DNA of 64,000 nt from Candidatus Woesearchaeota archaeon (lineage in GTDB: Archaea > Nanobdellota > Nanobdellia > Woesearchaeales > UBA11576), in NCBI GenBank assembly GCA_018675335.1, contig JABGYH010000007.1:111902-175901 (forward strand). The letters are read 5' to 3'. The notes beneath the pieces were generated by a model that did no database searches, had not been told where the DNA came from, and saw nothing but the letters and a program-made list of their open reading frames with translations. This document shows positions 1 to 14,202 of the stretch, piece by piece (positions within the stretch are counted from its first letter, which is position 1; each line of letters begins with the position of its first letter). Both the position numbers and the translations under genes were made by a program.

Positions 1-1
1 A

Positions 2-1171
2 AAAGAAGAAGATGAATTTAGCACAGACTTAGACGATATTGAAAAAGATGATGAAGGACTTAGCGCAAATGAACTTGAAGATTCAGACAAAAAGCTAGAT
101 GAAAATATGGATGATGATTTACTAGTTGAAGAAAAGGAAAAAATAGAGATTCCTGATGAAAAAACTACCGACGTTGAAGAAAAAACACAAAAGTTTTCAT
201 CCGCACTTAAAGATGATGAAGCAGCAAAATTAGACCTAAAAGAAGACGATCAAGCTGACTTGGAAGTAGCTGAAGAAATTAGTGAAAAAAAAGAAAAAAC
301 AGGATTTTTTGGAAAACTAAAACAAAAAGTTGCGGCAAAGACATTATCCGAATCAAAATTTGAAGATTTATTTTTTGAACTTGAAATAACATTACTTGAA
401 AATAATGTTGCAGTAGAAGTTATTGAAAAAATTAAAACAGATTTAAAAGAACGATTAGTCGATCATAAACTTAATCGATTTGAAATTGAAACAATAATTA
501 TGAGTACACTTAAAAAAAGCTTAAATGAAATACTAGATTTTGAGCCGTTTGATATTTTAGAAAAAGTTAAACATAAAAAACCATTCGTAATTACATTTGT
601 TGGAGTTAATGGCTGTGGAAAAACAACAACCATCGCAAAACTTGCAAGATTCTTTCAATCACAACAATTAAAACCAGTACTAGTTGCAGCAGATACATTT
701 AGAGCTGCAGCAATACAACAACTAGAAGAACATGCTAATCGCCTAGGTGTAAAAATGATCAAACATGATTATGGAAGTGATCCCGCAGCAGTAGCATTTG
801 ATGGAATAAAATATGCAGAATCAAAAGGTCTAGATGTAGTATTAATTGATACTGCAGGACGACTTCAATCAAACATAAACTTAATGGATGAAATGAAAAA
901 AATCATGAGAGTTGCAAATCCAGATCTTAAAATTTTTATTGGAGAATCAATAACTGGAAATGACTGCGTAGAACAAGCAAAAAAATTCAATGAAGCAGTA
1001 GAATTTGATGGAATAGTCTTATCAAAAGCAGATGTTGATGAAAAAGGCGGAGCTGCAATTTCAGTTTCATATGTTACAGGAAAACCAGTACTATTCATCG
1101 GAACTGGACAATCATATAAAGACTTAGAATTATTTAGTCGTACAAAAATCATGAAAACATTAGGATTTTAA
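2..1171 (+). CDS. ftsY: Signal recognition particle receptor FtsY. 5' partial: the reading frame is open to the window start. Acidic N-terminal domain followed by an NG GTPase domain.
   Basis: GVNGCGKTTTIAKLA P-loop, DTAGR and TGxGxxxK SRP-GTPase motifs. Frame 2 has no stop before the Met at 107. Confidence 0.88.
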   Translation, partial: KEEDEFSTDLDDIEKDDEGLSANELEDSDKKLDENMDDDLLVEEKEKIEIPDEKTTDVEEKTQKFSSALKDDEAAKLDLKEDDQADLEVAEEISEKKEKTGFFGKLKQKVAAKTLSESKFEDLFFELEITLLENNVAVEVIEKIKTDLKERLVDHKLNRFEIETIIMSTLKKSLNEILDFEPFDILEKVKHKKPFVITFVGVNGCGKTTTIAKLARFFQSQQLKPVLVAADTFRAAAIQQLEEHANRLGVKMIKHDYGSDPAAVAFDGIKYAESKGLDVVLIDTAGRLQSNINLMDEMKKIMRVANPDLKIFIGESITGNDCVEQAKKFNEAVEFDGIVLSKADVDEKGGAAISVSYVTGKPVLFIGTGQSYKDLELFSRTKIMKTLGF

Positions 1172-1263
1172 ACATTAGTAGGACAATAACATCTATCAAT
1201 CATAATAAATTTTATATATATCTCAAATATTTTCAAACTCATCAATAAAACCATAATTATGGG

Positions 1264-1896
1264 GTGGTATACTTGGATAAATTTAAAAAAGCATTTTTGC
1301 ATCCGTTTCAAGACGTAAAGTCAGTGATCATAGGATGTTTGTTAAATATTTTACCAATAATTAATTTCTTCTCAACAGGATATATTGTTGAAGCAGGAAA
1401 ACTAAGTTTAAAACACAAAAAAGCATTACCTAAATGGGAAAATTTTGGTCATTTATGGATCACAGGATTACTAGTATTTTTGTTCGGACTTATTTGGTCC
1501 ATACCTGCATTAATTTTAACATTTTTATTTGTTGGAAAACAATTCGTTTCAATGCTTACCACAGGCAGTGCTTTTGAAATGCTCCCAGGATTTAGTTCGG
1601 GAATTGTTTTAGTTGCAATAGTTTTTGTGTTAACATTTTATTTAATGCCTGCCGCACTAATGAACTTTATTAAAAAAGGACACTTTGGCGCAGCATTTGA
1701 ATTTAAAAAAATATTTTCAAAAGCTTTAACTGGAAAATATTTTGTCGTCTGGGCATTTTTTGTAGTAGTTTATTTTGTACTTTCATTTATTGCAAACTTA
1801 ATTCCTTTCGCAAATATAGTTTTAGCACCTGCAGCAGGATATATTGCATACATGATCGGCGTTACTGCAATCGCACATGTATGGGACAAATTATAA
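1264..1896 (+). CDS. Hypothetical polytopic membrane protein (DUF4013-like)
   Basis: About 5 hydrophobic helices. I recognise no catalytic motif. Confidence 0.5.
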   Translation: MVYLDKFKKAFLHPFQDVKSVIIGCLLNILPIINFFSTGYIVEAGKLSLKHKKALPKWENFGHLWITGLLVFLFGLIWSIPALILTFLFVGKQFVSMLTTGSAFEMLPGFSSGIVLVAIVFVLTFYLMPAALMNFIKKGHFGAAFEFKKIFSKALTGKYFVVWAFFVVVYFVLSFIANLIPFANIVLAPAAGYIAYMIGVTAIAHVWDKL

Positions 1897-1941
1897 AATT
1901 TTAGAAAGCTTAAATTAAATTTTTTATTTTTCTTTTCTTTG

Positions 1942-2601
1942 TTAATCAAATTCTATTTTATTATTATAAAAAACACCTTTGCTCAATGTAACCGGACGCC
2001 AAGTGTCATGAACGAGTTTTGCCTCCAACCAATCTGCTAATTCTTGTTCATTACCAATAGTTGCGCTGAGACCCACAATTTGAAGACCCACAATTAATTG
2101 TTTTAGAAGAGTTATAAGAATCTCCAATGTTGGACCTCGCCTTGGCTCATTTAAAAGATGTATTTCATCAATTACCACAACACCCACTTCTTTAATCCAA
2201 GGAGTCCTGTGACGAATTAATGAATCTAACTTTTCAGATGTACAAATAATTAAATCATATTTTGCAAGATGAGAATCCGATGCGTCAAGATCACCTATTG
2301 ATAATGCTATTTGAAACTTATCAGCATACTTTTTTTTAAATTCTTTATACTTCTCTGATGCTAGCGCCTTTAATGGGACAATATATATCGCCTTAGAATG
2401 TTTTTCTAAAACTGCATTAAGAATTGCCAGCTCACCCACCAAAGTCTTACCAGATGCAGTAGGCGTGCAAACTAAAAGATTCTTTTTTTGGAAAAGACCT
2501 GCAGCGATAGATTTTTTCTGAGAAGGACGAAACTCCACAATGTTTTGATCCTTAATTATATCAAAAATTCTTTTTGGCATTAACTTTTTTTCTGCATCCA
2601 T
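1942..2601 (-). pseudogene. Hel308/Ski2-type helicase, N-terminal RecA domain only (219 aa). Truncated gene fragment.
   Basis: Motif I TPTASGKT, motif II DEIH and motif III SAT are present. Motifs IV-VI and the winged-helix/ratchet domains are absent. The ORF stops 45 bp before the neighbouring gene. Confidence 0.6.
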
Positions 2602-2837
2602 TTTTAAAATTTATAAAAAATTTTAGAGTTTAATAAACTTAGTCTATGAAGAAGATGTTTTTAAATAATTTGGTTGGAAGTTATAGAAATTTTAAAGAGT
2701 TTATATTCTTTTTCACCCTAAACTGATGGTGAAAACACCTCTTTTCCCCTAACCGCTATTGTTTAGAACAACAAACTTTAAAAAAGACTGTTTAATATAA
2801 TAGAATGTAAGTTTTAACGCCAAAAAAGCTTAGATTC

Positions 2838-2866
2838 GGAGAGCAATCTCCTCTTTTTGTTTTTTG
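2838..2866 (+). terminator. Short hairpin (GGAGA-GCAA-TCTCC) followed by a T5GT6 tract. Could be a terminator for an upstream unannotated transcript.
   Basis: 5-bp inverted repeat plus a T-run seen directly. The stem is weak. Confidence 0.2.
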
Positions 2867-3070
2867 AGTATGCGAAAAGGATTGAAAGATCTTTTTTTCG
2901 CTCAAAATTCATTTTTAGATGTTTTTTTGATCTTAGGCGAGTTAAAATGGCTTTGAATTATATTTATAATTTTATTTTAATCAATTCAAAAATCAATAAC
3001 TTAATTTGAAAACAAGCATAAACACACCAAATAAATTTCATAATTAATTTAAATAAAAGGTTTAATAAAA

Positions 3071-4024
3071 ATGGCACATACACTACCCAAAGTTTATTTT
3101 TCTGTTGAAGAAGGATTTCAAAATTATCCTGAAGAGTTTTATAGAACAAGTAGAAGAATTTTATCAAAACTGAGCGATATAACTGACTTGTTTCTTGTAG
3201 TTCCAGGAGACTACAATTTAGAAAAAGGCACAATAAAAAAAGCATTTCGATTTCTTAGTCCAACACAATTACAACAAATTTTAGGCGAACATCAACCTGA
3301 AGGAGATATGTTCATAATTTATGGAGATGAAACTTCAAAAAATATAGGGTTAGAATTTGCAAAAAGACAATACCAATTTCTTCAAAATCTTAAGTCCGAA
3401 GGTGCGTTTAAACAATTTTTAAACGAACCTGAAACTGAAGAAGCAACTCTAAAAGATCGCCTAGTAGAATTATCAAAAGATCCTTCTTTAAACATAGCTG
3501 AAACTATTAGATATACTTCAAGAGATCAAACGAAAAGATTAATTCAAAAATATGGAGGACAAATTATTCTTAAACCAATTTTTGGTTGCAGAGGTTCAGG
3601 AGTAACTATTGTAACTTCACTAGATGATTTATTTGCTCAAGTTAATTCTGAAGATGAATTAAAACGAGATTACATACTTCAAGAACCGCTAGATGGATCA
3701 GAAGTTAGAGTTGTACTTCTTGATGACCAATTGCTTTGTTCTAGAGTACACCATAACAGAAAAACTCCTTGGGACACAACCAGATCACAAACAACTTATG
3801 ACCACTCCCCGACCACCGATGAATTAGAAATCACATCAAGAATATCCACCCAGGTTGGTGCATATCTGATCGGAGTTGATTTTATTGGACCTAAAGTTAA
3901 TGAAATCAATGGAACTGGAACTGGTTTAGTAATTTATGATCATACGGGAAATTTAATTTATGATAAAACTGACGAATTCGTACGCCATGTCATGAGTACA
4001 ATTCAAGAGGATCACCAAACATGA
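3071..4024 (+). CDS. ATP-grasp ligase, RimK/glutathione-synthetase-like
   Basis: C-terminal ATP-grasp motifs: ILKPIFGCRGSGV, then GAYLIGVDFIG...VNEINGTGTG (RimK-like GVDF/NEIN signature). Confidence 0.7.
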   Translation: MAHTLPKVYFSVEEGFQNYPEEFYRTSRRILSKLSDITDLFLVVPGDYNLEKGTIKKAFRFLSPTQLQQILGEHQPEGDMFIIYGDETSKNIGLEFAKRQYQFLQNLKSEGAFKQFLNEPETEEATLKDRLVELSKDPSLNIAETIRYTSRDQTKRLIQKYGGQIILKPIFGCRGSGVTIVTSLDDLFAQVNSEDELKRDYILQEPLDGSEVRVVLLDDQLLCSRVHHNRKTPWDTTRSQTTYDHSPTTDELEITSRISTQVGAYLIGVDFIGPKVNEINGTGTGLVIYDHTGNLIYDKTDEFVRHVMSTIQEDHQT

Positions 4025-5109
4025 ACGAAAAAATATTAATTTGTGGCGCAGGACAAGGAGGGCATGCAATTGCGGGCTATGCTGCAACATTAGGAAATGA
4101 AGTTAGTTTATACACTCACACCCCAAAAAAAGCAGAAATTATTTCTTCTAACGGCAACAAAATTAAATTAACAGGAATACTAGACGGTGAAGCGCAATTA
4201 AGAAGTATAACCACCAACCTCCAAGAAGCAGTTTCAGATAATAAATATATTTTCATAATTACCGATGCAACAGTTCATAAATACTATGCAGAAAGACTAG
4301 CACCAATCTTAACAGATCAACAAGTTATGTTAATTTCTCCAGGAATTGGAGGAGCACTTGAATTTTTAAATTTAGTTAATTCAATAAATCCTGATGCCAA
4401 CATAGGAGTTAGTGAAACAGATACATTAGTTTACGCGTGCAAAGTTCCAGAAATAGGAACTTCATATATTAAAACAGAAAAAAAAAGCATAATTTATTCT
4501 TCAGTTCCTAATGCGGAAGGAATTGCTGGACTTTTAAATGAACTGTATCCTCAATTTGAAGATGTAGGAAATCCTTTAATGGGCTTAGATGATAGTCCAG
4601 TATTTCATATTGTTGGAATGTTATATAATGCACACAGAATTTTAAATAAAGAAGATTTTAATTTTTATATTGGTGGAACGACAGAAGAAAGTGCAGAAAT
4701 AATGGAAGAAATGGATGCTGAAAGATGCGAGGTTGCCCGCGCAGTAGGAATTGAACCTAGAACTGTGCGTGAATGGTTAAACATCGCTTATGGCGTTGAA
4801 ATGAGTTCTTTATTTAACATGATACATGCGACACCCCCATACCAAAACACTCCTGAAATTCCAAATAGATCTCCTGCCCCAAAAACTCTCTTTCACAGAT
4901 ATTTGTTAGAAGAGATTCCTTTAAGAGCAGTTCCAACAGTTAGCATAGCAAGAATATTTGATATTCCAACTCCCCGATATGAAGAAATGGTCGGTAGAGC
5001 AAGAGAATTAACTGGAATTGATTTTTGGAAAACTGGAAGAACTCTTGAAGATATGGGATTAACAGAGCAAGATATAAAAAGATGGACCAATTCACATACT
5101 TGGAGATGA
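4021..5109 (+). CDS. Opine (octopine/nopaline-type) dehydrogenase family NAD(P) oxidoreductase
   Basis: By-eye alignment to Arthrobacter CENDH: GAGQGGHAIAGYAA Rossmann, SPGIGGALEF, MDAERCEVARA, DIPTPRY, DFWKTGRTLEDMGL. Start ATGA overlaps the upstream stop. Confidence 0.75.
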   Translation: MNEKILICGAGQGGHAIAGYAATLGNEVSLYTHTPKKAEIISSNGNKIKLTGILDGEAQLRSITTNLQEAVSDNKYIFIITDATVHKYYAERLAPILTDQQVMLISPGIGGALEFLNLVNSINPDANIGVSETDTLVYACKVPEIGTSYIKTEKKSIIYSSVPNAEGIAGLLNELYPQFEDVGNPLMGLDDSPVFHIVGMLYNAHRILNKEDFNFYIGGTTEESAEIMEEMDAERCEVARAVGIEPRTVREWLNIAYGVEMSSLFNMIHATPPYQNTPEIPNRSPAPKTLFHRYLLEEIPLRAVPTVSIARIFDIPTPRYEEMVGRARELTGIDFWKTGRTLEDMGLTEQDIKRWTNSHTWR

Positions 5110-5981
5110 AGTCTAATAGTCGAATAATCGCACCATCAAAAAAAATTTCTAAACACGAATTAATTAAGGGAATACAAAGATTACATAAAATAGGATTTAT
5201 CCCAAAATATAATTCAGATATTACTAGTTCAGATATTTATTTTGCAGGCACTTTGCAACGTCGTGTATTAGAAATCGAAACTGCACTTTTAGAAGTAAAA
5301 AATCCATTTATTTTTTGCGCTCGCGGAGGATATGCTTCTATGGAACTTCTCTCACACATTAATCCGAAGCTAATAAAAAAATCAAAAAAAACAATCATAG
5401 GCCATAGCGATATTACAGCATTACTCCTCGGTTTTTATAAAAAAGGATTTCAAGGCAATTTAATACACGGACCTAATATTTGCACTAAAAACTGGATTGA
5501 AAATTCAGTATCAGAAAAGTTATTAATTGATTGTTTAACAAATAAACCATACAAAATTAATTTAAAAAATCACACCCACATTTTAAATGAAAAAAGTTTT
5601 AATGGACACATAATAGGGGGAAATTTAAGAATTATTTGCCACATGATTGGCACAGAATATGAAATTGATACTAACAAAAAAATATTATTTTTAGAAGATG
5701 TTAACGAAAGACCTGCCGCAATATATAATATGTTACTTCACCTAAAATTGGCAGGAAAGTTAAAAAATATTAAAGCATTACTTATAGGAAATTTTCAAAA
5801 ATCAAGAAATTATTTAAAATTACTAGAAAAATTTATCAAAACTCTTAAAATACCAATTATTTATGAGCTTAGATTAGGCCACCAAAATAATATAATACCC
5901 ATAAGGCTAGGAGATTATGTTCATTATAATACCTTAACAAAAAATTTATCTTTTAAAAACAATAAACAAACAAAAAAATAA
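5082..5981 (+). CDS. S66-family LD-carboxypeptidase (LdcA/MccF-like)
   Basis: GHSDITALL nucleophile-Ser motif and a C-terminal GH-containing segment. Overlaps the upstream gene by 28 nt. Confidence 0.7.
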   Translation: MDQFTYLEMKSNSRIIAPSKKISKHELIKGIQRLHKIGFIPKYNSDITSSDIYFAGTLQRRVLEIETALLEVKNPFIFCARGGYASMELLSHINPKLIKKSKKTIIGHSDITALLLGFYKKGFQGNLIHGPNICTKNWIENSVSEKLLIDCLTNKPYKINLKNHTHILNEKSFNGHIIGGNLRIICHMIGTEYEIDTNKKILFLEDVNERPAAIYNMLLHLKLAGKLKNIKALLIGNFQKSRNYLKLLEKFIKTLKIPIIYELRLGHQNNIIPIRLGDYVHYNTLTKNLSFKNNKQTKK

Positions 5982-5998
5982 ATAATTTTTAAATATGT

Positions 5999-6616
5999 GT
6001 GATATTCATGAAACCATATAAACAAACAACGAGGTATACATCTGCGAGTAGTGCTCTATTGATGGTGTTGAATCACTTTGATTCTAAGTTTGAGTTAAGT
6101 CGCGATAACGAATTTTGGATTTGGCAGAGAAGTGCCACTCTTCCTACAAGAGGATCTTCCATATATGCGCTTGGGACTTTGGCTGCAAAAAAAGGAATTT
6201 CTGTATCCATTATTGTGGAAGAACCAGAATATAAATTTCCAGGATATAGATTTAAAGCATACAAGAAAAAAGAAATTGATGTTGCCAATTTTCGTTCAGA
6301 ATTATTTTACAAACAAGCAACCAAAGAAAATATTAAAATTGAAGAAAGAGATTTTGAATTAACTGAAGTTAAAGACTTACTTTGTCAAGGAAAATTGTTA
6401 ATGGTTAGATTAATAGTTGGAATTTTAAGACAAAGTAAATTAAATAGACGAAATCCACATTATGTTTTAATTACAAATTATGATTCTGATAAAAAAGAAT
6501 TTAAAATAATTGATACTCGAAAAGGAAAATTAAAAATTTCTGAAGAACTAATGATTGAAGCTTTTGAAACAGTACATACCTGCAAAAGAGATAATAGAAT
6601 GATCATATTTGGATAA
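5999..6616 (+). CDS. C39-like (papain-fold) peptidase domain protein. The canonical Cys is replaced, so it is possibly Ser-nucleophile or inactive.
   Basis: His in HYVLI followed about 17 residues later by IIDT, matching C39 His/Asp topology. The N-terminal TSASSALLMVL occupies the position of the CGxxxL nucleophile motif but has no Cys. Confidence 0.4.
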   Translation: MIFMKPYKQTTRYTSASSALLMVLNHFDSKFELSRDNEFWIWQRSATLPTRGSSIYALGTLAAKKGISVSIIVEEPEYKFPGYRFKAYKKKEIDVANFRSELFYKQATKENIKIEERDFELTEVKDLLCQGKLLMVRLIVGILRQSKLNRRNPHYVLITNYDSDKKEFKIIDTRKGKLKISEELMIEAFETVHTCKRDNRMIIFG

Positions 6617-6646
6617 AATATATTTTTAACTTATGTGTGCGAATCA

Positions 6647-7492
6647 TTATTTCTTTTTTCTTACGTTTTTAGAAATTGTTTTTACTTTTAATTTATTAGA
6701 AGTTATTTTTTTGAACTTTACATTTTTTTTAACAACTTTTACTAAATCATTTTGCACCAAACCATTTGATGCTATTAATTGCGAAGTATTAACTGTTGCA
6801 GATTTTCCTTTAAAATCACTCACACTTCCCCCTGATTCAGTTACAATTAATAATCCTGCCGCAATATCCCAACTATTAATACCATGCATAATACACCCAT
6901 CCAGTCTTCCCGCACCAACATATGCAAGTTCTAATGCCGCAGAACCTAACCTGCGAATTCTTAATTTATGTTTAATTAAATCAGAATAAATATTTACGGC
7001 TTCACGAGTTTCTTTATGGGTTTTTCTATGACCTAAATCAAGAACAGTTCCTTTTAGTGTTTTTGCACGCGACACTCTAATTGGTTTTCCATTTAATTCT
7101 GCGCCTTTGCCTTTTTCTGCACAAAACATCTCTTTAGTGTAAGGATTAAAAACAACTGCAACAACACTTTCATTATTTACTACAAGACCAATTGACACAT
7201 TAAAATAAGGAAGTTGAATTTTATAATTGGTTGTTCCGTCGATAGGATCAATAAACCACACATGATCCGAACTTAAATTTGTACACCCAAATTCTTCACC
7301 ACAAAAACCATGATCAGGAAATTCTTTTAAAATAATTTGTTTAATCTTTTTTTCAGATGCTTTGTCTGCATTGCTCACCAAAGAATCATCGTTTTTAAAT
7401 TCAAATGTTGCACAACCATAATTTTTTAGAATTATTTTTCCTGCAGCACGTGCTGCTTTAATTGCAACTTTTAATAATTTTGATTTCTTCAT
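6647..7492 (-). CDS. suhB: Inositol monophosphatase / archaeal FBPase-IMPase family, with a Lys-rich C-terminal tail
   Basis: WFIDPIDGTTNY metal-binding motif and WDIAAG motif. Confidence 0.8.
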   Translation of the reverse strand: MKKSKLLKVAIKAARAAGKIILKNYGCATFEFKNDDSLVSNADKASEKKIKQIILKEFPDHGFCGEEFGCTNLSSDHVWFIDPIDGTTNYKIQLPYFNVSIGLVVNNESVVAVVFNPYTKEMFCAEKGKGAELNGKPIRVSRAKTLKGTVLDLGHRKTHKETREAVNIYSDLIKHKLRIRRLGSAALELAYVGAGRLDGCIMHGINSWDIAAGLLIVTESGGSVSDFKGKSATVNTSQLIASNGLVQNDLVKVVKKNVKFKKITSNKLKVKTISKNVRKKK

Positions 7493-7555
7493 TTGTATGA
7501 TCTCTAATTTTTGTGTTTTTTATTAAATTTAATGTAAACTATTGTTAAATATAAA

Positions 7556-9151
7556 TTAAAATAAAGGATATGACATCTCATTAGGAATTGGAAGATCCAT
7601 TAATTTAAGAATCGTCGGTGCAACATTTGCAATACTACTTTTTTTCTTAGTTAATTTTATGTTATTATTTGAAAATTTATTATTTTCTTCAAGGATTAAA
7701 ATTAAAGGAACTTTATTTGTAGTATGACTTGTTTTATGAACTCCTGCCATTTCTTCAGCATTGCCATGATCTGCAGTAACAATTATATTGTAATTATTTA
7801 ATTTTGCAACTTTCATTACTTTTTCTAAACAAGCATCAGTTATTTGAACTGCATTAATTGCAGCATCAAGATATCCTGTGTGTCCAACCATATCCGGATT
7901 TGAAAAATTTATTAAAATAAAATCTTGAGACTTATTTTTAATTTGTGAAACTACCTTTTTAGTTATTTCATTTGCTCTCATTTGAGGAGTTTCATCATAA
8001 GTTTTAACTTTGCGACTAGGAATAATTATTCGATCTTCTTTTTTGAATGGAGTTTCTTTTCCCCCATTAAAGAAAAAAGTAACATGCGCATATTTTTCCG
8101 TTTCAGCAATCCTTAATTGAGATTTATTATTTTTAAATAAAATTTCACCCAAAGTGTTTTTAGGCAAGGAAGGAGGAAACGCCACAGGTGCTTTAATTTT
8201 TTTATCATATTGAGCAAGACACACAAAATCAAGATCGAAAATCTTTTTTCGTTTAAACTCAAGAAATTTTCCTTGAACAAACGCTTTGGTTATTTCTCTT
8301 GCGCGATCTCCTCTGAAATTAAAAAATATCATCGAGTCATTTTTATCAACTGTTGAATTATCAGTTATTGTTGGAGGAATAAACTCATCAGTAATTCCTT
8401 TTTTATAAAAATCTTTTATTAAATTTTTAATCTGTTTAATTGACATAAATCCAGGATGTTTTTTACGATGATCTTTTTTACTCACCAAGGATTCATACGC
8501 CCTATGTTCTCTGTGCCACCTATGATCCCTATCCATACCATAATACCTGCCAATAATTGTTGAAATTACTACTTTAATTTTTAAAGTGCGTAATTTTTTT
8601 CCTAATAAATCAAAATATTTTAAAGCGCTCATTGGAGGTACATCTCTACCGTCGAGAATAGGGTGAAAATAAACCGTTTTAATCCCTTTTGACCCCATTA
8701 ATTTTAGAATTGCGAATAAATGATTAATGTGTGCATGAACTCCTGCATCACTAAATAAACCCAACAAATGCATTTTACTTTTATTTTTTTTAACGTGCGT
8801 AATTGATTTAAGAAGTGCTTTATTTTTGAAAAATGAACCATTTTTAATTGACCTATTAATTAAAACTAATTCTTGAGGAATTACTCTTCCAGCACCAAGA
8901 TGAAGATGACCTACTTCACTATTTCCAATTACTGATTTTGGGAGCCCAACACTTGGCCCACTTGCGTCAAGTAACATATGAGAATTTTTTTTCCAAAGAG
9001 AATCAAAACAAGGAGTTTTAGCTTTTTGAATCGCATTATTTACTTGGCTAGTTCTTATTCCCCAACCGTCCAGAACAATTAGCACAGATTTGGAACTAGA
9101 ATTTATTTTAGACTGCCCGCGCTTAGAACTCTGTTTAGTTGTCATTTTCAC
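7556..9151 (-). CDS. gpmI: 2,3-bisphosphoglycerate-independent phosphoglycerate mutase, bacterial GpmI type
   Basis: VLIVLDGWGIR N-terminus, metalloenzyme domain DHGNAEEM, length 531 aa. Confidence 0.85.
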   Translation of the reverse strand: MKMTTKQSSKRGQSKINSSSKSVLIVLDGWGIRTSQVNNAIQKAKTPCFDSLWKKNSHMLLDASGPSVGLPKSVIGNSEVGHLHLGAGRVIPQELVLINRSIKNGSFFKNKALLKSITHVKKNKSKMHLLGLFSDAGVHAHINHLFAILKLMGSKGIKTVYFHPILDGRDVPPMSALKYFDLLGKKLRTLKIKVVISTIIGRYYGMDRDHRWHREHRAYESLVSKKDHRKKHPGFMSIKQIKNLIKDFYKKGITDEFIPPTITDNSTVDKNDSMIFFNFRGDRAREITKAFVQGKFLEFKRKKIFDLDFVCLAQYDKKIKAPVAFPPSLPKNTLGEILFKNNKSQLRIAETEKYAHVTFFFNGGKETPFKKEDRIIIPSRKVKTYDETPQMRANEITKKVVSQIKNKSQDFILINFSNPDMVGHTGYLDAAINAVQITDACLEKVMKVAKLNNYNIIVTADHGNAEEMAGVHKTSHTTNKVPLILILEENNKFSNNNIKLTKKKSSIANVAPTILKLMDLPIPNEMSYPLF

Positions 9152-9240
9152 CTCTACAAATATTTGAAACGATTAAATAAAAAAATAAAAAATTAAATAA
9201 AATAAATATTTTAACTTAATCTTATAACCATTACATTAAA

Positions 9241-10281
9241 TTATAACAATGATGCGAACACTTCAAATTTTTGTTCCCTATAACTAATTAATGTGTCATA
9301 ATTTTTAACTCGATCTTTAAATTCAAGACGGATCTTACGAATAGTGTCATGAAATCCCTTTTGATTTCTAGCAACAACTTTTAACACAATATTATAATCC
9401 CCCATTGTTTTCATTGCACGAACAATATTTGGGTGCATCCTTACAAGTTGCTTGAATTTCATCTCATCTTCTTTAGTCATGTATTTCATATTCAAAAATA
9501 AAGTATAAAATTGATATCCTATTAAAGACCAGTTAATGATTGTGCTAAATTGTTGAATTACGCCTTTGTCCACTAGTTTTTTAATTCGGTAATTAACAGT
9601 ATCTGCACTGACACTTAATTTTTCAGCTAACGCATATAATGATTCCCTGCCATTTTTTGCGAGAAGATTCATTAAATTCCTATCAGTTTCATCCAATTTA
9701 ATATCATCTTGCCCTAATTCTTTATGCTTTTTTGGTTTATCCAAATTTTCGATTTCAGGTGGCTCTTCAATTTTTTGTTTTACAAATTCTCTTGGTATGT
9801 TAACATAGGAATAATTTTTGATAACATGAAAAATTTCCATATTTTCAACTAGATCAGAAAACTTTGTTAAAAAATCATTTAATACTTCATCAAATTCATC
9901 AACAGTTTTAGAATAAACCGCCAATTCAAGCTCCCATTTATCACTATATTCTATAATATTTAGAAAATTAGGATTTTTTTTAAGATAATCAAATAATTCT
10001 TTTTCTTTGCTTGACTCTAATTCGACAATTTGCAAATATACCTTAAAATGCTTATAATCAAATAAAGAATATTTAGATAAAATTGTGAATTTTTGTATAA
10101 CTCCTAATTCTTGCATGCGATTAATTCTATACCTAACTGCATCTCGTGATAACATCACTTTTTTTGCAAGCTCAGAAAATGTTAAACGACAATTATTAAC
10201 TAACAACCCAATAATTTTCCTATCTTTTAGGTCGAGCTTAGGAAGCTCAGAAACTTCATCCAGTATTCTTGTTACAACCAT
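9241..10281 (-). CDS. Tandem-fused Lrp/AsnC family transcriptional regulator (two HTH+RAM modules)
   Basis: Two repeats of an HTH (DRKIIGLLVNNCRLTFSELAKKV / DRNLMNLLAKNGRESLYALAEKL) each followed by a RAM-like domain. 346 aa is about 2 x 170. Confidence 0.7.
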   Translation of the reverse strand: MVVTRILDEVSELPKLDLKDRKIIGLLVNNCRLTFSELAKKVMLSRDAVRYRINRMQELGVIQKFTILSKYSLFDYKHFKVYLQIVELESSKEKELFDYLKKNPNFLNIIEYSDKWELELAVYSKTVDEFDEVLNDFLTKFSDLVENMEIFHVIKNYSYVNIPREFVKQKIEEPPEIENLDKPKKHKELGQDDIKLDETDRNLMNLLAKNGRESLYALAEKLSVSADTVNYRIKKLVDKGVIQQFSTIINWSLIGYQFYTLFLNMKYMTKEDEMKFKQLVRMHPNIVRAMKTMGDYNIVLKVVARNQKGFHDTIRKIRLEFKDRVKNYDTLISYREQKFEVFASLL

Positions 10282-10520
10282 TTTAGATATTTTAAAATTT
10301 ATTATTATTTAAAACTTACGATTTAATTAGCTAATTATGTGAAAACTTAATTAAATCACTAATCAAACTCAAGAATAATAAGAAAAATAAGTAAACTGAT
10401 AAAACTAAGAAAAATAAGACAACTAATAAAAATAAGAAAACTCAAAAAAATAAAATCAACCATAATAATAAAAATAATAATAAAAATAATAATAATTATA
10501 AAAATACGCAAGACCCATAG

Positions 10521-11813
10521 TTAATACTTAGCTCTTTTACCAAGTTCCACTTCTATTTGCATGAGCCTATTGTATTTTGCTAAACGTTCTCCCCTACAAG
10601 GCGCTCCAGATTTGATTTGACCCGAACCCAAACCCACAACTAAATCCGAAATAAATGTACTAGTAGTCTCACCACTACGATGACTAACCATCACATTCCA
10701 ATCATTTTTCAACGCCAACTTTGCAGCAGCTAATGCTTCTGTTACGGTCCCAATTTGATTCACCTTTAACAAAAGTGCATTGCATAAATTCCTGTCAAGT
10801 GCAAGTTTAACACGATCAACACTCGTAACTAACAAATCATCACCAACAATTTGAACTTTTTTTCTCTTAAGAACTTTATTTTGTCGCAACATAGAAAAGC
10901 CAGAAAAATCATCTTGATCAAAAGGATCTTCAATAGATACAATAGGATATTTTTTAACTAACTCTTCATAAAAATCAACAAATTTGTTTTTCGAAAATCG
11001 TTTTCCATCAACTTTGTAATAACCTTTATGAAAAAACTCAGACGCTGCCGCATCCATTGCAATCTTAATTTTTTTAGAATAACCTAAATCATCAATTGCA
11101 GTCACCAGTAAATTTAATGCTTGTTCAACACAATCAATTCTTGGAGCAAACCCTCCTTCATCACCAACATTAGTGGAATCCTTGCCATACTTATGACCAA
11201 TAACTCTTTTTAATTCGTGATATGTTTCGGCACCAATACGAACACTATCCGCAAAATTCTTCCCTTTAGGCGCAATCATAAATTCTTGAAACGCCAATTT
11301 ATTTTCTGCGTGCTTCCCACCATTTAAAACATTGAAAAATGGAGTTGGCAAGCGATTTTTAGTACCAATAATCGAATATAACTTTTTATTTTTGACAATG
11401 GAACAAAGACGATATGATGCCAAACTAACTCCTAAAATTGCATTCGCACCAAGTCGAGATTTGTTTTTAGTTCCATCCAAATCCACTAATGCGCGATCTA
11501 TTTTTTTAGGTTCACGAACATCAAAACCTTTTAATTTACGATTTATAATTGTATTAACATTATTAACTGCTTTTAAAACTCCTTTACCACCGTACCGTTT
11601 GCCACCATCTCTTAGTTCCCACGCTTCATGAATCCCTGTTGATGCACCACTTGGTACTTCTTCTGTTGCAGAGTGAGTTTTTGTAAATACTGTAACTTCA
11701 ACTGTAGGATTACCTCTAGAATCAAGAATTTCTCTAGCAAAAATCTTTCTTATGAAAAAATCGTCTTTTGCAGCCCTAACAGAAATAAATTTTGTAGCCA
11801 AGTTACACCTCAA
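10521..11813 (-). CDS. eno: Enolase (phosphopyruvate hydratase)
   Basis: [15 protein letters not shown] and SHRSGETEDTFIADL-like [15 protein letters not shown] motifs. The track ORF starts at TTG. The real start may lie about 20 codons in from the track start. Confidence 0.92.
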
Positions 11814-12040
11814 TTTTTGAAAATAATATTTTTACAAACCCATTTATGACCTAATCGCCAACAAATTAGATCTGATTATTAAAAATATAATATAATAGAT
11901 GAAAATAGTTATTTATAAACTTTATGTAGCACTAGCGAGTAAACTATCTGGTTAATATTAAAAATAACGAATTGATAGTACCCCAAATTGATTAAATTAA
12001 ATCAGTAATTGATTCAATACTTAATTATTGAATCAGTGCA

Positions 12041-12931
12041 TTAACCAATATAACTAGTTTCTTTAGTTAGTCTTTGAGTAATTTTTTTCAAACTACTTTT
12101 AGATACTTTACTTGCATCACCTGGTTCTTGTGATAATTCTTTTTCTAATTCGGCAATTTCCTTATCAAGCTTTTTGATACTAATGCCTAAATTAAGTTTT
12201 TTATCTAAGATCTTAATTATTTCTCTTGCTCCACCCACACCTAAATAAGCAGGATGACCAAGAGTTTCTGCAAGTAAACAAATACCAGGAACATCTTGTC
12301 TTTCTGCAAGACCAATTAACAATCCACTCACACCAATAATTGGGCCCACAACACCAAATATATTATGATTAATTTTAATGCCTTTTTGAAACGAAGTCAT
12401 AAAATCAGAATTATTAGCAGTACAATAAACTTGAGGTTTCTTAGGTGCTTGACCCAAACCAATACCTCCCAAAGTAATTATTTCAGATCCCCCAACTTTT
12501 TTAAACAAACTTAGAACTGAATCGCAAAAAGCATAACAACTCCTGCCATCAGTTGGTTGAAGATCTCCAGTTATGATTATTAAATCTCGTTTATCGCAAG
12601 ACTTAATTTTTTTTACTTTTTTTTCCGATTTAGAATTTTTAGTTAGTTTAGCTTTATCTTTTCCATTACCATTAAATTTTTTGTAATAAACTTCAATAAG
12701 TGGAAGTTCAACACGATTATGCTCATTAATAAAAACAGAATTTGGCAAATCATACGAAAAAATCTCAAAAACTTTTTTAGCCTTAATTTGTTCAATAATA
12801 AAATCTACAGCAATTTTACCAACATTACCAATTCCAGGCATTCCTTCCACTAAAACAGGATTGTTAAGTTTAGGTATTTTGTTTGTTTGCGGGATAAATT
12901 TCCAATCAGTCAATTTAAGGTACCTCACCAA
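12041..12931 (-). CDS. PAC2-family proteasome assembly chaperone
   Basis: PVLVEGMPGIGNVGKIAVDFII and IIITGDLQ PAC2 signature segments. Confidence 0.7.
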   Translation of the reverse strand: MVRYLKLTDWKFIPQTNKIPKLNNPVLVEGMPGIGNVGKIAVDFIIEQIKAKKVFEIFSYDLPNSVFINEHNRVELPLIEVYYKKFNGNGKDKAKLTKNSKSEKKVKKIKSCDKRDLIIITGDLQPTDGRSCYAFCDSVLSLFKKVGGSEIITLGGIGLGQAPKKPQVYCTANNSDFMTSFQKGIKINHNIFGVVGPIIGVSGLLIGLAERQDVPGICLLAETLGHPAYLGVGGAREIIKILDKKLNLGISIKKLDKEIAELEKELSQEPGDASKVSKSSLKKITQRLTKETSYIG

Positions 12932-13075
12932 ATATTATTTTAAATCATTATTTTAACGCATTATCTTAACACATTATCTTAAATCAGCAATTCAAAACAT
13001 CATTTCAAATCAACAGTTCAAAACATCAGTTCAAAGTATAATTACAAATAAATCATATTAGCAATTATTCATTAA

Positions 13076-13255
13076 TTATAGACGACCATCATTTTCAAGA
13101 AGTTCTTTTCTCGCCTTACGACGATAACTACCATAAGGATCTTCAGGACTAAATTTAGCAGGAGCAGGATTAACTGTTTTCGCATTACAAGAAGGGCAAT
13201 CAGCCTCCATAGAATAAACATCACAACTTTTGCACTTAAGTATATGTCTCGCCAT
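13076..13255 (-). CDS. nop10: H/ACA ribonucleoprotein subunit Nop10 (59 aa). Not in the ORF track.
   Basis: Manual translation gives MARHILKCKSCDVYSMEADCPSCNAKTVNPAPAKFSPEDPYGSYRRKARKELL: zinc ribbon plus the P-x-FSP-D-Y Nop10 motif. It sits in the conserved Nop10-aIF2alpha-S27e-L44e neighbourhood. Confidence 0.7.
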   Translation of the reverse strand: MARHILKCKSCDVYSMEADCPSCNAKTVNPAPAKFSPEDPYGSYRRKARKELLENDGRL

Positions 13256-13413
13256 TTTTAGAATGTAAGTATCTTCTTCCTTATATTTTTTACTTTTGAA
13301 ATTTGAAAAAAAAGGTTTTATTTCGAAAAAAATAAATTTTCATCGAATAATTAATGAATTAATATGTGAATAAATATTATCAACTGACTGAATTTTATTA
13401 AATTAATAAGATG

Positions 13414-14202
13414 TTAAGACTTTTGCTCAATTCGCTTGAATTCAGCATAACCATCAACTTTTTCAATTCCCTCAATCACATATTCTGTAACCGCTTTTAA
13501 TTTTTTCTCAACACTTTTGTAATCAGTATCTGAAACTTCTAAAATATATGCGCCACCGCCCTTATATTTAATCATTGAATCTTTTGCTTTTTTCAAAGAT
13601 TCAGTAAGAACTTTTTTAATTGTTTCAATACCATCTGGAGTGAAAAGTTTAATTTTGAATTCTCCTGATGCAAATTTAATAGAAGGTTTAATTCTTTGTT
13701 TAATTGTAACGCCAAGTAACTTCATAATATTTTCAGGAAGTTTATAATCATCCAGTGCAGAGTCATCAGAAATATAATCTTCAAAACACGGATAAATATT
13801 ATCATAATCATTTAAAATCTTATCACAAAGAGTTTTGTAAATATCTTTAACATTTAGCTTTAACTCTCCTGCAACAAACTCAATAATTTTTTCAGCCTTT
13901 TGTTCTTGCTTAATCTCGTCGACTTTCGCACGTCTTTGAGTTTCAGTAACTCTCCTTAAACTTAAATCAACATGACCTCGTTCTTTATCAGTTTTAAGAA
14001 CTTTACAAATAACTTTTTTACCCTCTTTAACATAATCGTGAATATTTCTAATTCTACCAGGAGATACTTCCCCAATGTGAATCATACCACTTTTACCACC
14101 AAAATCATCAATGGTTACAAAAACACAATGCGGATAAATTTTAGTAACATTACAAAGAAGAATTTCCCCATCCTCTGGCAAGCCAGTTTTTTGTCTTAAC
14201 AT
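13414..14202 (-). CDS. eif2a: Translation initiation factor 2 alpha subunit
   Basis: N-terminal S1 domain (GEILLCNVTKI...SLRRV), helical domain and C-terminal alpha/beta domain. 262 aa. Confidence 0.85.
   Translation of the reverse strand: MLRQKTGLPEDGEILLCNVTKIYPHCVFVTIDDFGGKSGMIHIGEVSPGRIRNIHDYVKEGKKVICKVLKTDKERGHVDLSLRRVTETQRRAKVDEIKQEQKAEKIIEFVAGELKLNVKDIYKTLCDKILNDYDNIYPCFEDYISDDSALDDYKLPENIMKLLGVTIKQRIKPSIKFASGEFKIKLFTPDGIETIKKVLTESLKKAKDSMIKYKGGGAYILEVSDTDYKSVEKKLKAVTEYVIEGIEKVDGYAEFKRIEQKS

Follow-up and report, generated by a model that had tools for sequence, protein, structure and literature searches.

Can a papain-fold protein whose nucleophilic cysteine has become a serine still be an enzyme? 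The question is raised by an open reading frame (ORF) at positions 5999-6616 (+) of the 64,000-nucleotide stretch of a Candidatus Woesearchaeota contig analyzed here, the whole of which is referred to as the window. The original prediction described the product as a C39-like peptidase without its catalytic Cys, and offered a Ser nucleophile or a non-catalytic leader-peptide-binding domain, such as those of some ATP-binding cassette (ABC) exporters, as the two possible explanations. Our analysis indicates that the protein is a stand-alone member of the DUF3335 family in which Ser has replaced Cys at the nucleophile position. We put the probability at about 0.5 that it is a substrate-binding pseudo-enzyme or a very weak hydrolase, in the manner of SERA5 of Plasmodium.

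A serine at the nucleophile position of a DUF3335 protein

Counted from the GTG at 5999, the ORF encodes 205 amino acids (aa); in homologues and in public annotation the start is the ATG at 6008, which gives 202 aa and the N-terminus MKPYKQTT. The GTG lies in a GTGAT stretch directly upstream of this ATG that may be a ribosome-binding site. Residues of the window protein are numbered here from the 205-aa form, and alignment columns from the 202-aa form (205-aa minus 3). The window is AT-rich (G+C about 30%). Its protein is 100% identical to NCBI HN587_04875 (Candidatus Woesearchaeota, a DPANN archaeon), and positions 3008-9616 are 100% identical to an ENA contig. The gene and its key positions are as follows, where A1 is an alignment of 30 sequences:

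6008-6616 (+): gene for the stand-alone DUF3335 / C39-like papain-fold protein, 202 aa from the ATG (mechanical ORF from GTG 5999).
6023-6025 (+): Gln9, CAA, predicted oxyanion-hole Gln; invariant in A1 and paired with the Gln of Alr0975 'QVNQAYCG'.
6041-6043 (+): Ser15 (Ser12 in the 202-aa form), TCT, nucleophile position, within 'YTSASSALLMVL'; Cys (TGT/TGC) in orthologues, from A1, the tallies below and alignment to LahT150 and Alr0975.
6458-6460 (+): His154, CAT, catalytic-His position in 'NPHYVLI', from the alignments; opens model strand 150-159.
6512-6517 (+): Asp172-Thr173 ('DT'; Asp is GAT at 6512-6514, within 'IIDT'), the catalytic-Asp position and then Thr, which is Pro in all 53 Cys-type orthologues.
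6584-6601 (+): C-terminal motif KRDNRM; R197, D198 and R200 invariant in A1.

The protein matched the Pfam family DUF3335 (PF11814, 'Peptidase_C39 like family') over residues 7-164 with an E-value of 3.5e-18 and 66.3 bits, against a gathering cut-off of 25. A secondary match to Peptidase_C39 (PF03412; E 3.8e-6) covered the C-terminal His/Asp part only, and the matches to Guanylate_cyc_2, Peptidase_C39_2 and BtrH_N (E 0.2 for the last) were below threshold. All of these have been described as related papain-like families, with DUF3335 described merely as uncharacterised and related to Guanylate_cyc_2 (PMC10318531).

A search of the PDB with the single protein gave no match, and a profile search gave weak matches (E 0.02-0.8) that were nevertheless correctly aligned. 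Because the family profile sets 'ytCaaasl' on 'eCGAASLAMVL' of LahT150, Ser15 falls in the nucleophile column; the same profile sets 'nHylpv' on 'NHFVVL' of LahT150 and, weakly (E 0.4), 'QttkytC' on 'QVNQAYC' of Alr0975. The Gln-Cys-His-Asp/Asn set of DUF3335 is therefore incomplete in the window protein, in which Gln, His and Asp are kept and Cys is Ser15. The spacing from Gln9 to the nucleophile position is 6 residues, and that from His to Asp is 18, as compared with 16 in ComA and CtaG. The Gln-to-nucleophile spacing of ComA (Q11/C17) is likewise 6 (PMC8277102).

An AlphaFold2 model built on 30 homologues had a predicted local distance difference test score (pLDDT) of 92 and a predicted template-modelling score (pTM) of 0.89. 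Using the 202-aa numbering, helix 12-24 begins with the nucleophile position, strand 150-159 begins with His151, and the adjacent strand 164-169 ends with Asp169; the modelled layout of Ser, His and Asp is the canonical papain-fold arrangement. The closest folds were C39 domains, followed by the pseudomurein endoisopeptidase PeiR (score 13.6), the putative C39-like peptidase 3erv (13.0) and, further down the same ranking, Alr0975 (12.1), the HlyB C39-like domain (10.3) and CtaG (9.4). Foldseek placed Alr0975 first (E 5e-6, template-modelling score 0.58) and C39 domains next. In summary, the C39-like fold and the His/Asp spacing that had been read from the sequence are upheld by the DUF3335 match, the model and the LahT150 alignment, with a similarity to papain-fold proteins that is far beyond chance, and the proposed replacement of the nucleophile is confirmed by the alignments to LahT150 and Alr0975.

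The first Cys of the window protein had been placed about 130 aa into the chain, and it is indeed residue 129; the second is residue 195. A relocated catalytic Cys was rejected: column 126 is mostly Lys in relatives and column 192 is Cys, Val, Lys or Ile, so neither is conserved. A six-frame search of the window with the family hidden Markov model did not find a second DUF3335 copy with Cys.

The serine is shared and the rest of the protein is constrained

The exact window protein is present on 7 contigs. Its closest species representative is an orthologue with 62% identity, recovered both from a GenBank metagenome-assembled genome (L007) and from a Joint Genome Institute metagenome contig (L041), that carries the same TCT Ser codon and an intact 'NPHYVLI' and Asp. 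A further member with 57% identity to the window protein (P0021) likewise has Ser. Because the same codon is found in the 62%-identical orthologue and in repeated assemblies, the Ser is considered to be fixed and not an error. Among 57 Cys-type sequences, 40 columns reached a conservation of at least 95%; the window protein departed from these at only two, C12S and P170T, where Pro170 is the residue after the catalytic Asp. Members of the family without the catalytic His departed at 4-15 of these 40 columns. As judged from these sequences, the Ser is real, fixed and old in the lineage, with purifying selection on the rest of the protein.

Catalytic residues have been lost repeatedly in the archaeal clade

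A word-indexed search returned 62 close homologues, all in Woesearchaeota/Nanoarchaeota-type archaea, and an exhaustive profile search returned 379 cluster representatives at E <= 1e-3, including 35 at E <= 1e-30. A further 78 loci came from scans of genome and metagenome contigs, and the archaeal clade comprises 123 unique near-full-length sequences. The His is kept and the N-terminus complete in 59 archaeal sequences, 53 of which are of the Cys-His-Asp-Pro type. The remaining six have lost the Cys, which is Ser in three (the window protein, L007 = L041, and P0021), Ala in P0040, Phe in P0030 and Gly in L049; in the Ala, Phe and Gly lineages the remaining conserved columns, among them His, Asp and Gln, are intact. 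The His is lost in 61 of the 123 sequences, mainly to Asn or Lys, and the Cys position in these members is Cys, Ser, Thr, Gly, Asn, Leu, Ala or Phe. They still keep Q6, T8, T11, E35, W39, P46, P78, Y80 and the RDxR motif, and the residues equivalent to R197, D198 and R200 of KRDNRM are mostly retained even where both Cys and His are absent. Among distant bacterial-type DUF3335 members, which are often fused to GNAT domains, AstE/AspA-like domains or a second copy, the Gln-Cys-His-Asp/Asn set with its Cys is present in 75 of 76.

In the neighbour-joining tree the window protein and L007 are sisters nested within the Cys-type crown group, and P0021, P0040 and P0030 form separate branches. P0030 is 79% identical to a Cys-type protein, and no other sequence is more than 58% identical to P0040. 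The separate branching of the Cys-less forms indicates that Cys was lost about five times within the crown group alone, and the Ser of the window protein is a lineage-specific departure from the Cys norm. A nucleophile is dispensable in this archaeal clade.

A loss or strong reduction of covalent catalysis, with substrate binding kept, is favoured because forms with the non-nucleophilic Ala, Phe or Gly have been maintained and their His, Asp, Gln and surface motifs are intact, because half of the clade lacks the His as well and is yet conserved, and because Ser is one mutational step from Cys and is frequent in clearly dead members. It is favoured also because SERA5, a Ser form, is non-enzymatic and Cys-less C39-like domains are binders. 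In SERA5, Ser occurs naturally at the nucleophile position of the papain fold and protease activity is not detectable; changing this Ser to Cys restores activity, and changing it to Ala is tolerated in vivo (PMC4671257). The HlyB-type C39-like domains have no Cys and are non-proteolytic (PMC8277102).

A Cys at another site was also observed in the clade. Several members without the canonical Cys carry one in the conserved LPTRG[SA]x loop (202-aa residues 50-51; about 6155-6160 of the window, 'RGSS'), namely P0052, P0053, P0056 and P0058 (RG[SAG]C), P0059 (RWCS) and P0021 (S50C). The Cys-type protein P0036 has one there too, and the window protein does not.

Loss of Cys12 is coupled to change of Pro170

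Pro170 is lost in 4 of the 6 Cys-less forms and in 0 of the 53 Cys forms, in about three separate lineages. The paired changes are C12S/P170S in L007, C12S/P170S together with S50C in P0021, C12F/P170S in P0030 and C12S/P170T in the window protein. This coupling is compatible with compensatory re-tuning, or with relaxed local constraint once the thiolate-imidazolium pair is gone. Because the Pro170 change is also found with Phe (P0030), the pattern argues that it is by itself no sign of a Ser nucleophile.

Operon and genomic context

Four co-directional genes, overlapping or closely spaced, end with the DUF3335 gene; the first three are as follows:

3071-4024 (+): first gene, ATP-grasp amide ligase of the RimK / glutathione-synthetase type (Pfam GSH-S_ATP 1.6e-7, RimK 7.4e-5).
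4021-5109 (+): second gene, opine-dehydrogenase-like NAD(P) oxidoreductase (Pfam Octopine_DH 3.6e-30).
5082-5981 (+): third gene, peptidase S66 (LD-carboxypeptidase / MccF-like; Pfam S66 N- and C-terminal domains 1.7e-24 and 4.5e-29).

The ATP-grasp gene also matched MptN and rimK_fam of NCBIfam, all under their cut-offs, and RimK in the PDB (3vpd, E 5e-4). The start of the second gene overlaps the ATP-grasp stop, and its product matched N-(1-D-carboxyethyl)-L-norvaline dehydrogenase (1bg6) at E 1.8e-36. The GHSD, LEDVNE and GHQ segments of the S66 protein, which we take to carry the catalytic residues, pair with the same segments of the murein tetrapeptide carboxypeptidase 5z01. No peptidyl or acyl carrier protein was found by Pfam among the genes of 2601-6616 (the three enzyme genes and the DUF3335 ORF). 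No ABC exporter or double-glycine peptide gene was found among the ORFs of window 1-14000, beyond which a substrate gene was not searched for.

At orthologous loci the DUF3335 gene has a short DEAD-like helicase gene upstream and iPGM/enolase genes immediately after it, and the intervening genes vary. Window 2601-6616 is one version of this syntenic island between the DEAD-like and iPGM genes (compare L001, L004, L010, L015, L018, L029 and L041), the content of which changes as DUF3335 stays at the 3′ end. The variants include GCS2 with a glutathione-synthetase-like ATP-grasp and Amidohydro_2; Octopine_DH with a B12-binding protein, an ATP-grasp and C26/GATase (plus PfkB); ATP-grasp with FGase and M20; two ATP-grasp genes, such as the pair that precedes P0040; and a pyridoxal-phosphate enzyme with DUF2334, an ATP-grasp and Amidohydro_2. 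The Ser-type sister L041 lies behind an ATP-grasp and a GATase/C26 gene. Other islands hold GT4 with two PIG-L deacetylases, two ornithine-cyclodeaminase-like genes, or none of these sets. Some combinations resemble pathways for low-molecular-weight thiols (considered for GCS2 with GSH-S and for GT4 with PIG-L) or compatible solutes; a 450-aa protein of L015 had no Pfam match, and a cysteine ligase was not identified there.

An ATP-grasp gene was present within 6 kb at 10 of 19 His-retaining loci, as compared with 1 of 21 His-less loci (Fisher p = 0.001). The sole His-less exception, L040, has Thr and Asn at the Cys and His positions and follows a racemase gene, a pair of ATP-grasp genes and an S66 gene, an arrangement much like that of the window.

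Other genes were noted near these loci. The DEAD-like gene of the window (1942-2601, -) encodes a 219-aa DEAD/ResIII-type helicase N-terminal domain, and many Woesearchaeota loci keep a stand-alone gene of this kind (about 220-245 aa) beside the island (15 loci of cluster c2). At one Woesearchaeota locus, L025, the gene immediately upstream of a His-less DUF3335 gene is TnpB/Cas12f-like (6868-7929, +; OrfB_IS605 with a Cas12f1-like TNB domain). An apparently unrelated DUF4013 membrane protein gene (window 1264-1896, +; E 7.8e-29) lies between the DEAD-like gene and the ORF at 107-1171, which we take, by eye from its sequence, to be FtsY-like.

Crippled enzyme, binder or serine enzyme

The operon would make or remodel a small amide or peptide compound, and the DUF3335 protein is cytoplasmic and stand-alone. 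By analogy with CtaG/BtrH, Alr0975 and C39 peptidases, the Cys-type orthologues are probably Gln-Cys-His-Asp enzymes that form an acyl-thioester on the Cys and cleave or transfer an amide-linked group; they may act, as thiol amidases or transacylases, on a small peptide or amide from the neighbouring ligases. One characterised precedent combines an ATP-grasp with a papain-fold protein (HHpred: PF11814/BtrH), namely the CtaD/CtaG pair that acts in closthioamide biosynthesis; CtaG, a transacylase with the triad Cys11-His128-Asp144, lost all activity upon replacement of its Cys, His or Asp by Ala (PMC7183216). In the lineage of the window protein, the Cys codon changed to TCT and became fixed together with the change of the Pro after the catalytic Asp, and the other conserved features of the family were retained. 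As the most likely consequence, thiol-type catalysis would have been lost or strongly reduced. The intact substrate groove would leave a binder, a sequestering or regulatory partner of the operon product, or at best a slow hydrolase.

Several observations weigh against such a crippled enzyme. Gln, His and Asp are all retained and Ser is able to act as a nucleophile. Ser recurs in 2 of about 5 independent losses of Cys. The gene is still in an intact ATP-grasp operon like those of the Cys-type enzymes, and the His-less relatives are mostly outside such operons. Finally, the coupling of Cys loss to the change of Pro170 to Ser or Thr resembles site remodelling more than plain decay.

A working Ser-His-Asp variant of the papain fold is a possible, if doubtful, alternative. 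The substrate attacked by Ser15 would be an amide, or else an activated acyl donor supplied by the ATP-grasp pathway, and the acyl-enzyme formed would be an oxy-ester, with the Pro-to-Thr change re-tuning the triad. Gln9, His154 and Asp172 are in place for this, 38 of 40 conserved columns are intact, Ser persists across at least 38% sequence divergence, Cys loss tracks Pro170-to-Ser/Thr in about three separate lineages, and the ATP-grasp operon is of the same type as for the Cys-type members. However, the same Pro-to-Ser change accompanies Cys-to-Phe in P0030, and Phe cannot be a nucleophile. The Ala and Gly forms also keep the His and Asp, so a kept dyad does not imply a nucleophile, and Cys-to-Ser mutants of papain-type enzymes are usually nearly dead. 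SERA5, the best-studied natural Ser form of the fold, is inactive (PMC4671257). A fuller version of this reading appears rather unlikely: a natural Ser-His-Asp form of the papain/C39 fold, re-tuned by Pro-to-Thr/Ser, would serve in DPANN archaea as an amidase or transacylase on the product of the ATP-grasp, opine-dehydrogenase and LD-carboxypeptidase enzymes, and the clade would then be a series from Cys-enzyme through Ser-enzyme to pseudo-enzyme.

It is improbable that the protein is a catalyst without a covalent nucleophile, in which the His-Asp dyad and the Gln oxyanion hole would activate water or an amine on an activated substrate (a thioester or acyl-phosphate) and residue 15 would be of little weight. 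The retention of His, Asp and Gln in the Ser, Ala, Phe and Gly forms over long divergence (P0040) would be explained, as would the presence of such forms in ATP-grasp contexts, with two ATP-grasp genes upstream of P0040. To our knowledge this has no precedent in the clan, and it rests on a handful of sequences. In CtaG, moreover, changes of Cys, His or Asp to Ala each abolished activity (PMC7183216).

Both explanations that the original prediction had offered, a Ser nucleophile and a non-catalytic binder, are live alternatives, but its comparison with the leader-binding domains of ABC exporters was not supported. Such a role is very improbable. The fold is closest to C39 domains, and C39-like domains without Cys exist; however, the protein is a stand-alone 202-aa DUF3335 member with no transporter fusion and a match to PF03412 that is not full-length, window 1-14000 has neither an exporter nor a double-glycine peptide gene among its ORFs, and the orthologous loci instead carry genes for ATP-grasp, amidohydrolase or sugar enzymes. 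An error of sequencing or assembly, or decay into a pseudogene, would require only the single-base change TGT to TCT, and can be set aside given the identical protein on 7 contigs, the same Ser codon in the 62%-identical orthologue from two independent assemblies, and an intact ORF that departs at just 2 of 40 conserved columns.

Significance

An active Ser form would be a rare natural Cys-to-Ser swap of the nucleophile in the papain fold, accompanied by an evident candidate for a compensating change and by close orthologues of the Cys type. An inactive one would be a prokaryotic example of a conserved papain-fold pseudo-enzyme, and the clade, about half of which lacks the His and about 10% of the rest the Cys, would then be a compact natural experiment in the passage from enzyme to binder. 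In genome-reduced Woesearchaeota, the association of DUF3335 with ATP-grasp/amidohydrolase operons of variable content points to a pathway for a small-peptide or amide metabolite that has yet to be explored. Cys-less C39-like domains and degenerate papain-fold proteins have been described before. What appears to be new, relative to the literature found, is the archaeal DUF3335 clade, which was not treated in the literature found on DUF3335/PF11814, its repeated loss of catalytic residues, the coupling of Cys12 and Pro170, and the limitation of the ATP-grasp linkage to His-retaining members. Current understanding is not overturned: the protein is a modest curiosity and does not represent a system of a new kind, and it would change thinking only if its Ser form turned out to be active.

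Comparison with known systems

The likeness to SERA5 (Ser596 pseudoprotease) is in the kind of substitution and is a mechanistic analogy alone, because SERA5 is a C1-like, eukaryotic, secreted protein of unrelated biology. Alr0975, the phytochelatin-synthase-like glutathione hydrolase of Nostoc (C83), resembles the window protein in fold at 12-17% identity, and its acyl-enzyme Cys corresponds to the Ser. Membership in the phytochelatin-synthase family was not supported, as the window protein had no match to PF05023 at E <= 1. The CtaG/BtrH transacylases are thiotemplated on carrier proteins and need their Cys, in contrast to the window operon, which has no carrier-protein gene, and to its protein, which has no Cys at the nucleophile position and matches BtrH_N at an E-value of only 0.2; membership in the BtrH family is likewise not supported by Pfam.

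The peptidase C39 domains of PCAT/AMS exporters (PCAT1, LahT and ComA) have the papain-like C39 fold in common with the window protein. Compared with these domains, the window protein is not fused to a transporter and has no evident double-glycine substrate. It also has about 70 extra residues, consisting of helices and a low-confidence loop (202-aa residues about 70-126), with Ser in place of the Cys at the start of helix 1 and Asp-Thr in place of Asp-Pro. The C39-like domains of RTX exporters (HlyB) are similar to it in that the nucleophile is degenerate and the fold is kept. In the HlyB-type domains, however, Tyr, Leu or Asn stands in place of the Cys, and the domain belongs to an ABC transporter of type 1 secretion that binds unfolded RTX proteins, whereas the window protein is free-standing, archaeal and of the Ser type, in a small-molecule/peptide ligase operon with no transporter nearby (window 1-14000).

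A further comparison is with other DUF3335 proteins, such as the GNAT-fused members. The score is above the Pfam cut-off, and the layout of motifs (Q...T.C, E..W, H, D/N) is common to both. A tie to amide-forming or amide-cleaving enzymes is also shared, through GNAT or AstE/AspA fusions in the distant members and through the ATP-grasp and S66 operon here. The distant members have Cys in 75 of 76 cases, where the window protein has Ser, and the Woesearchaeota/Nanoarchaeota clade to which it belongs has a C-terminal KRDxRM motif of its own.
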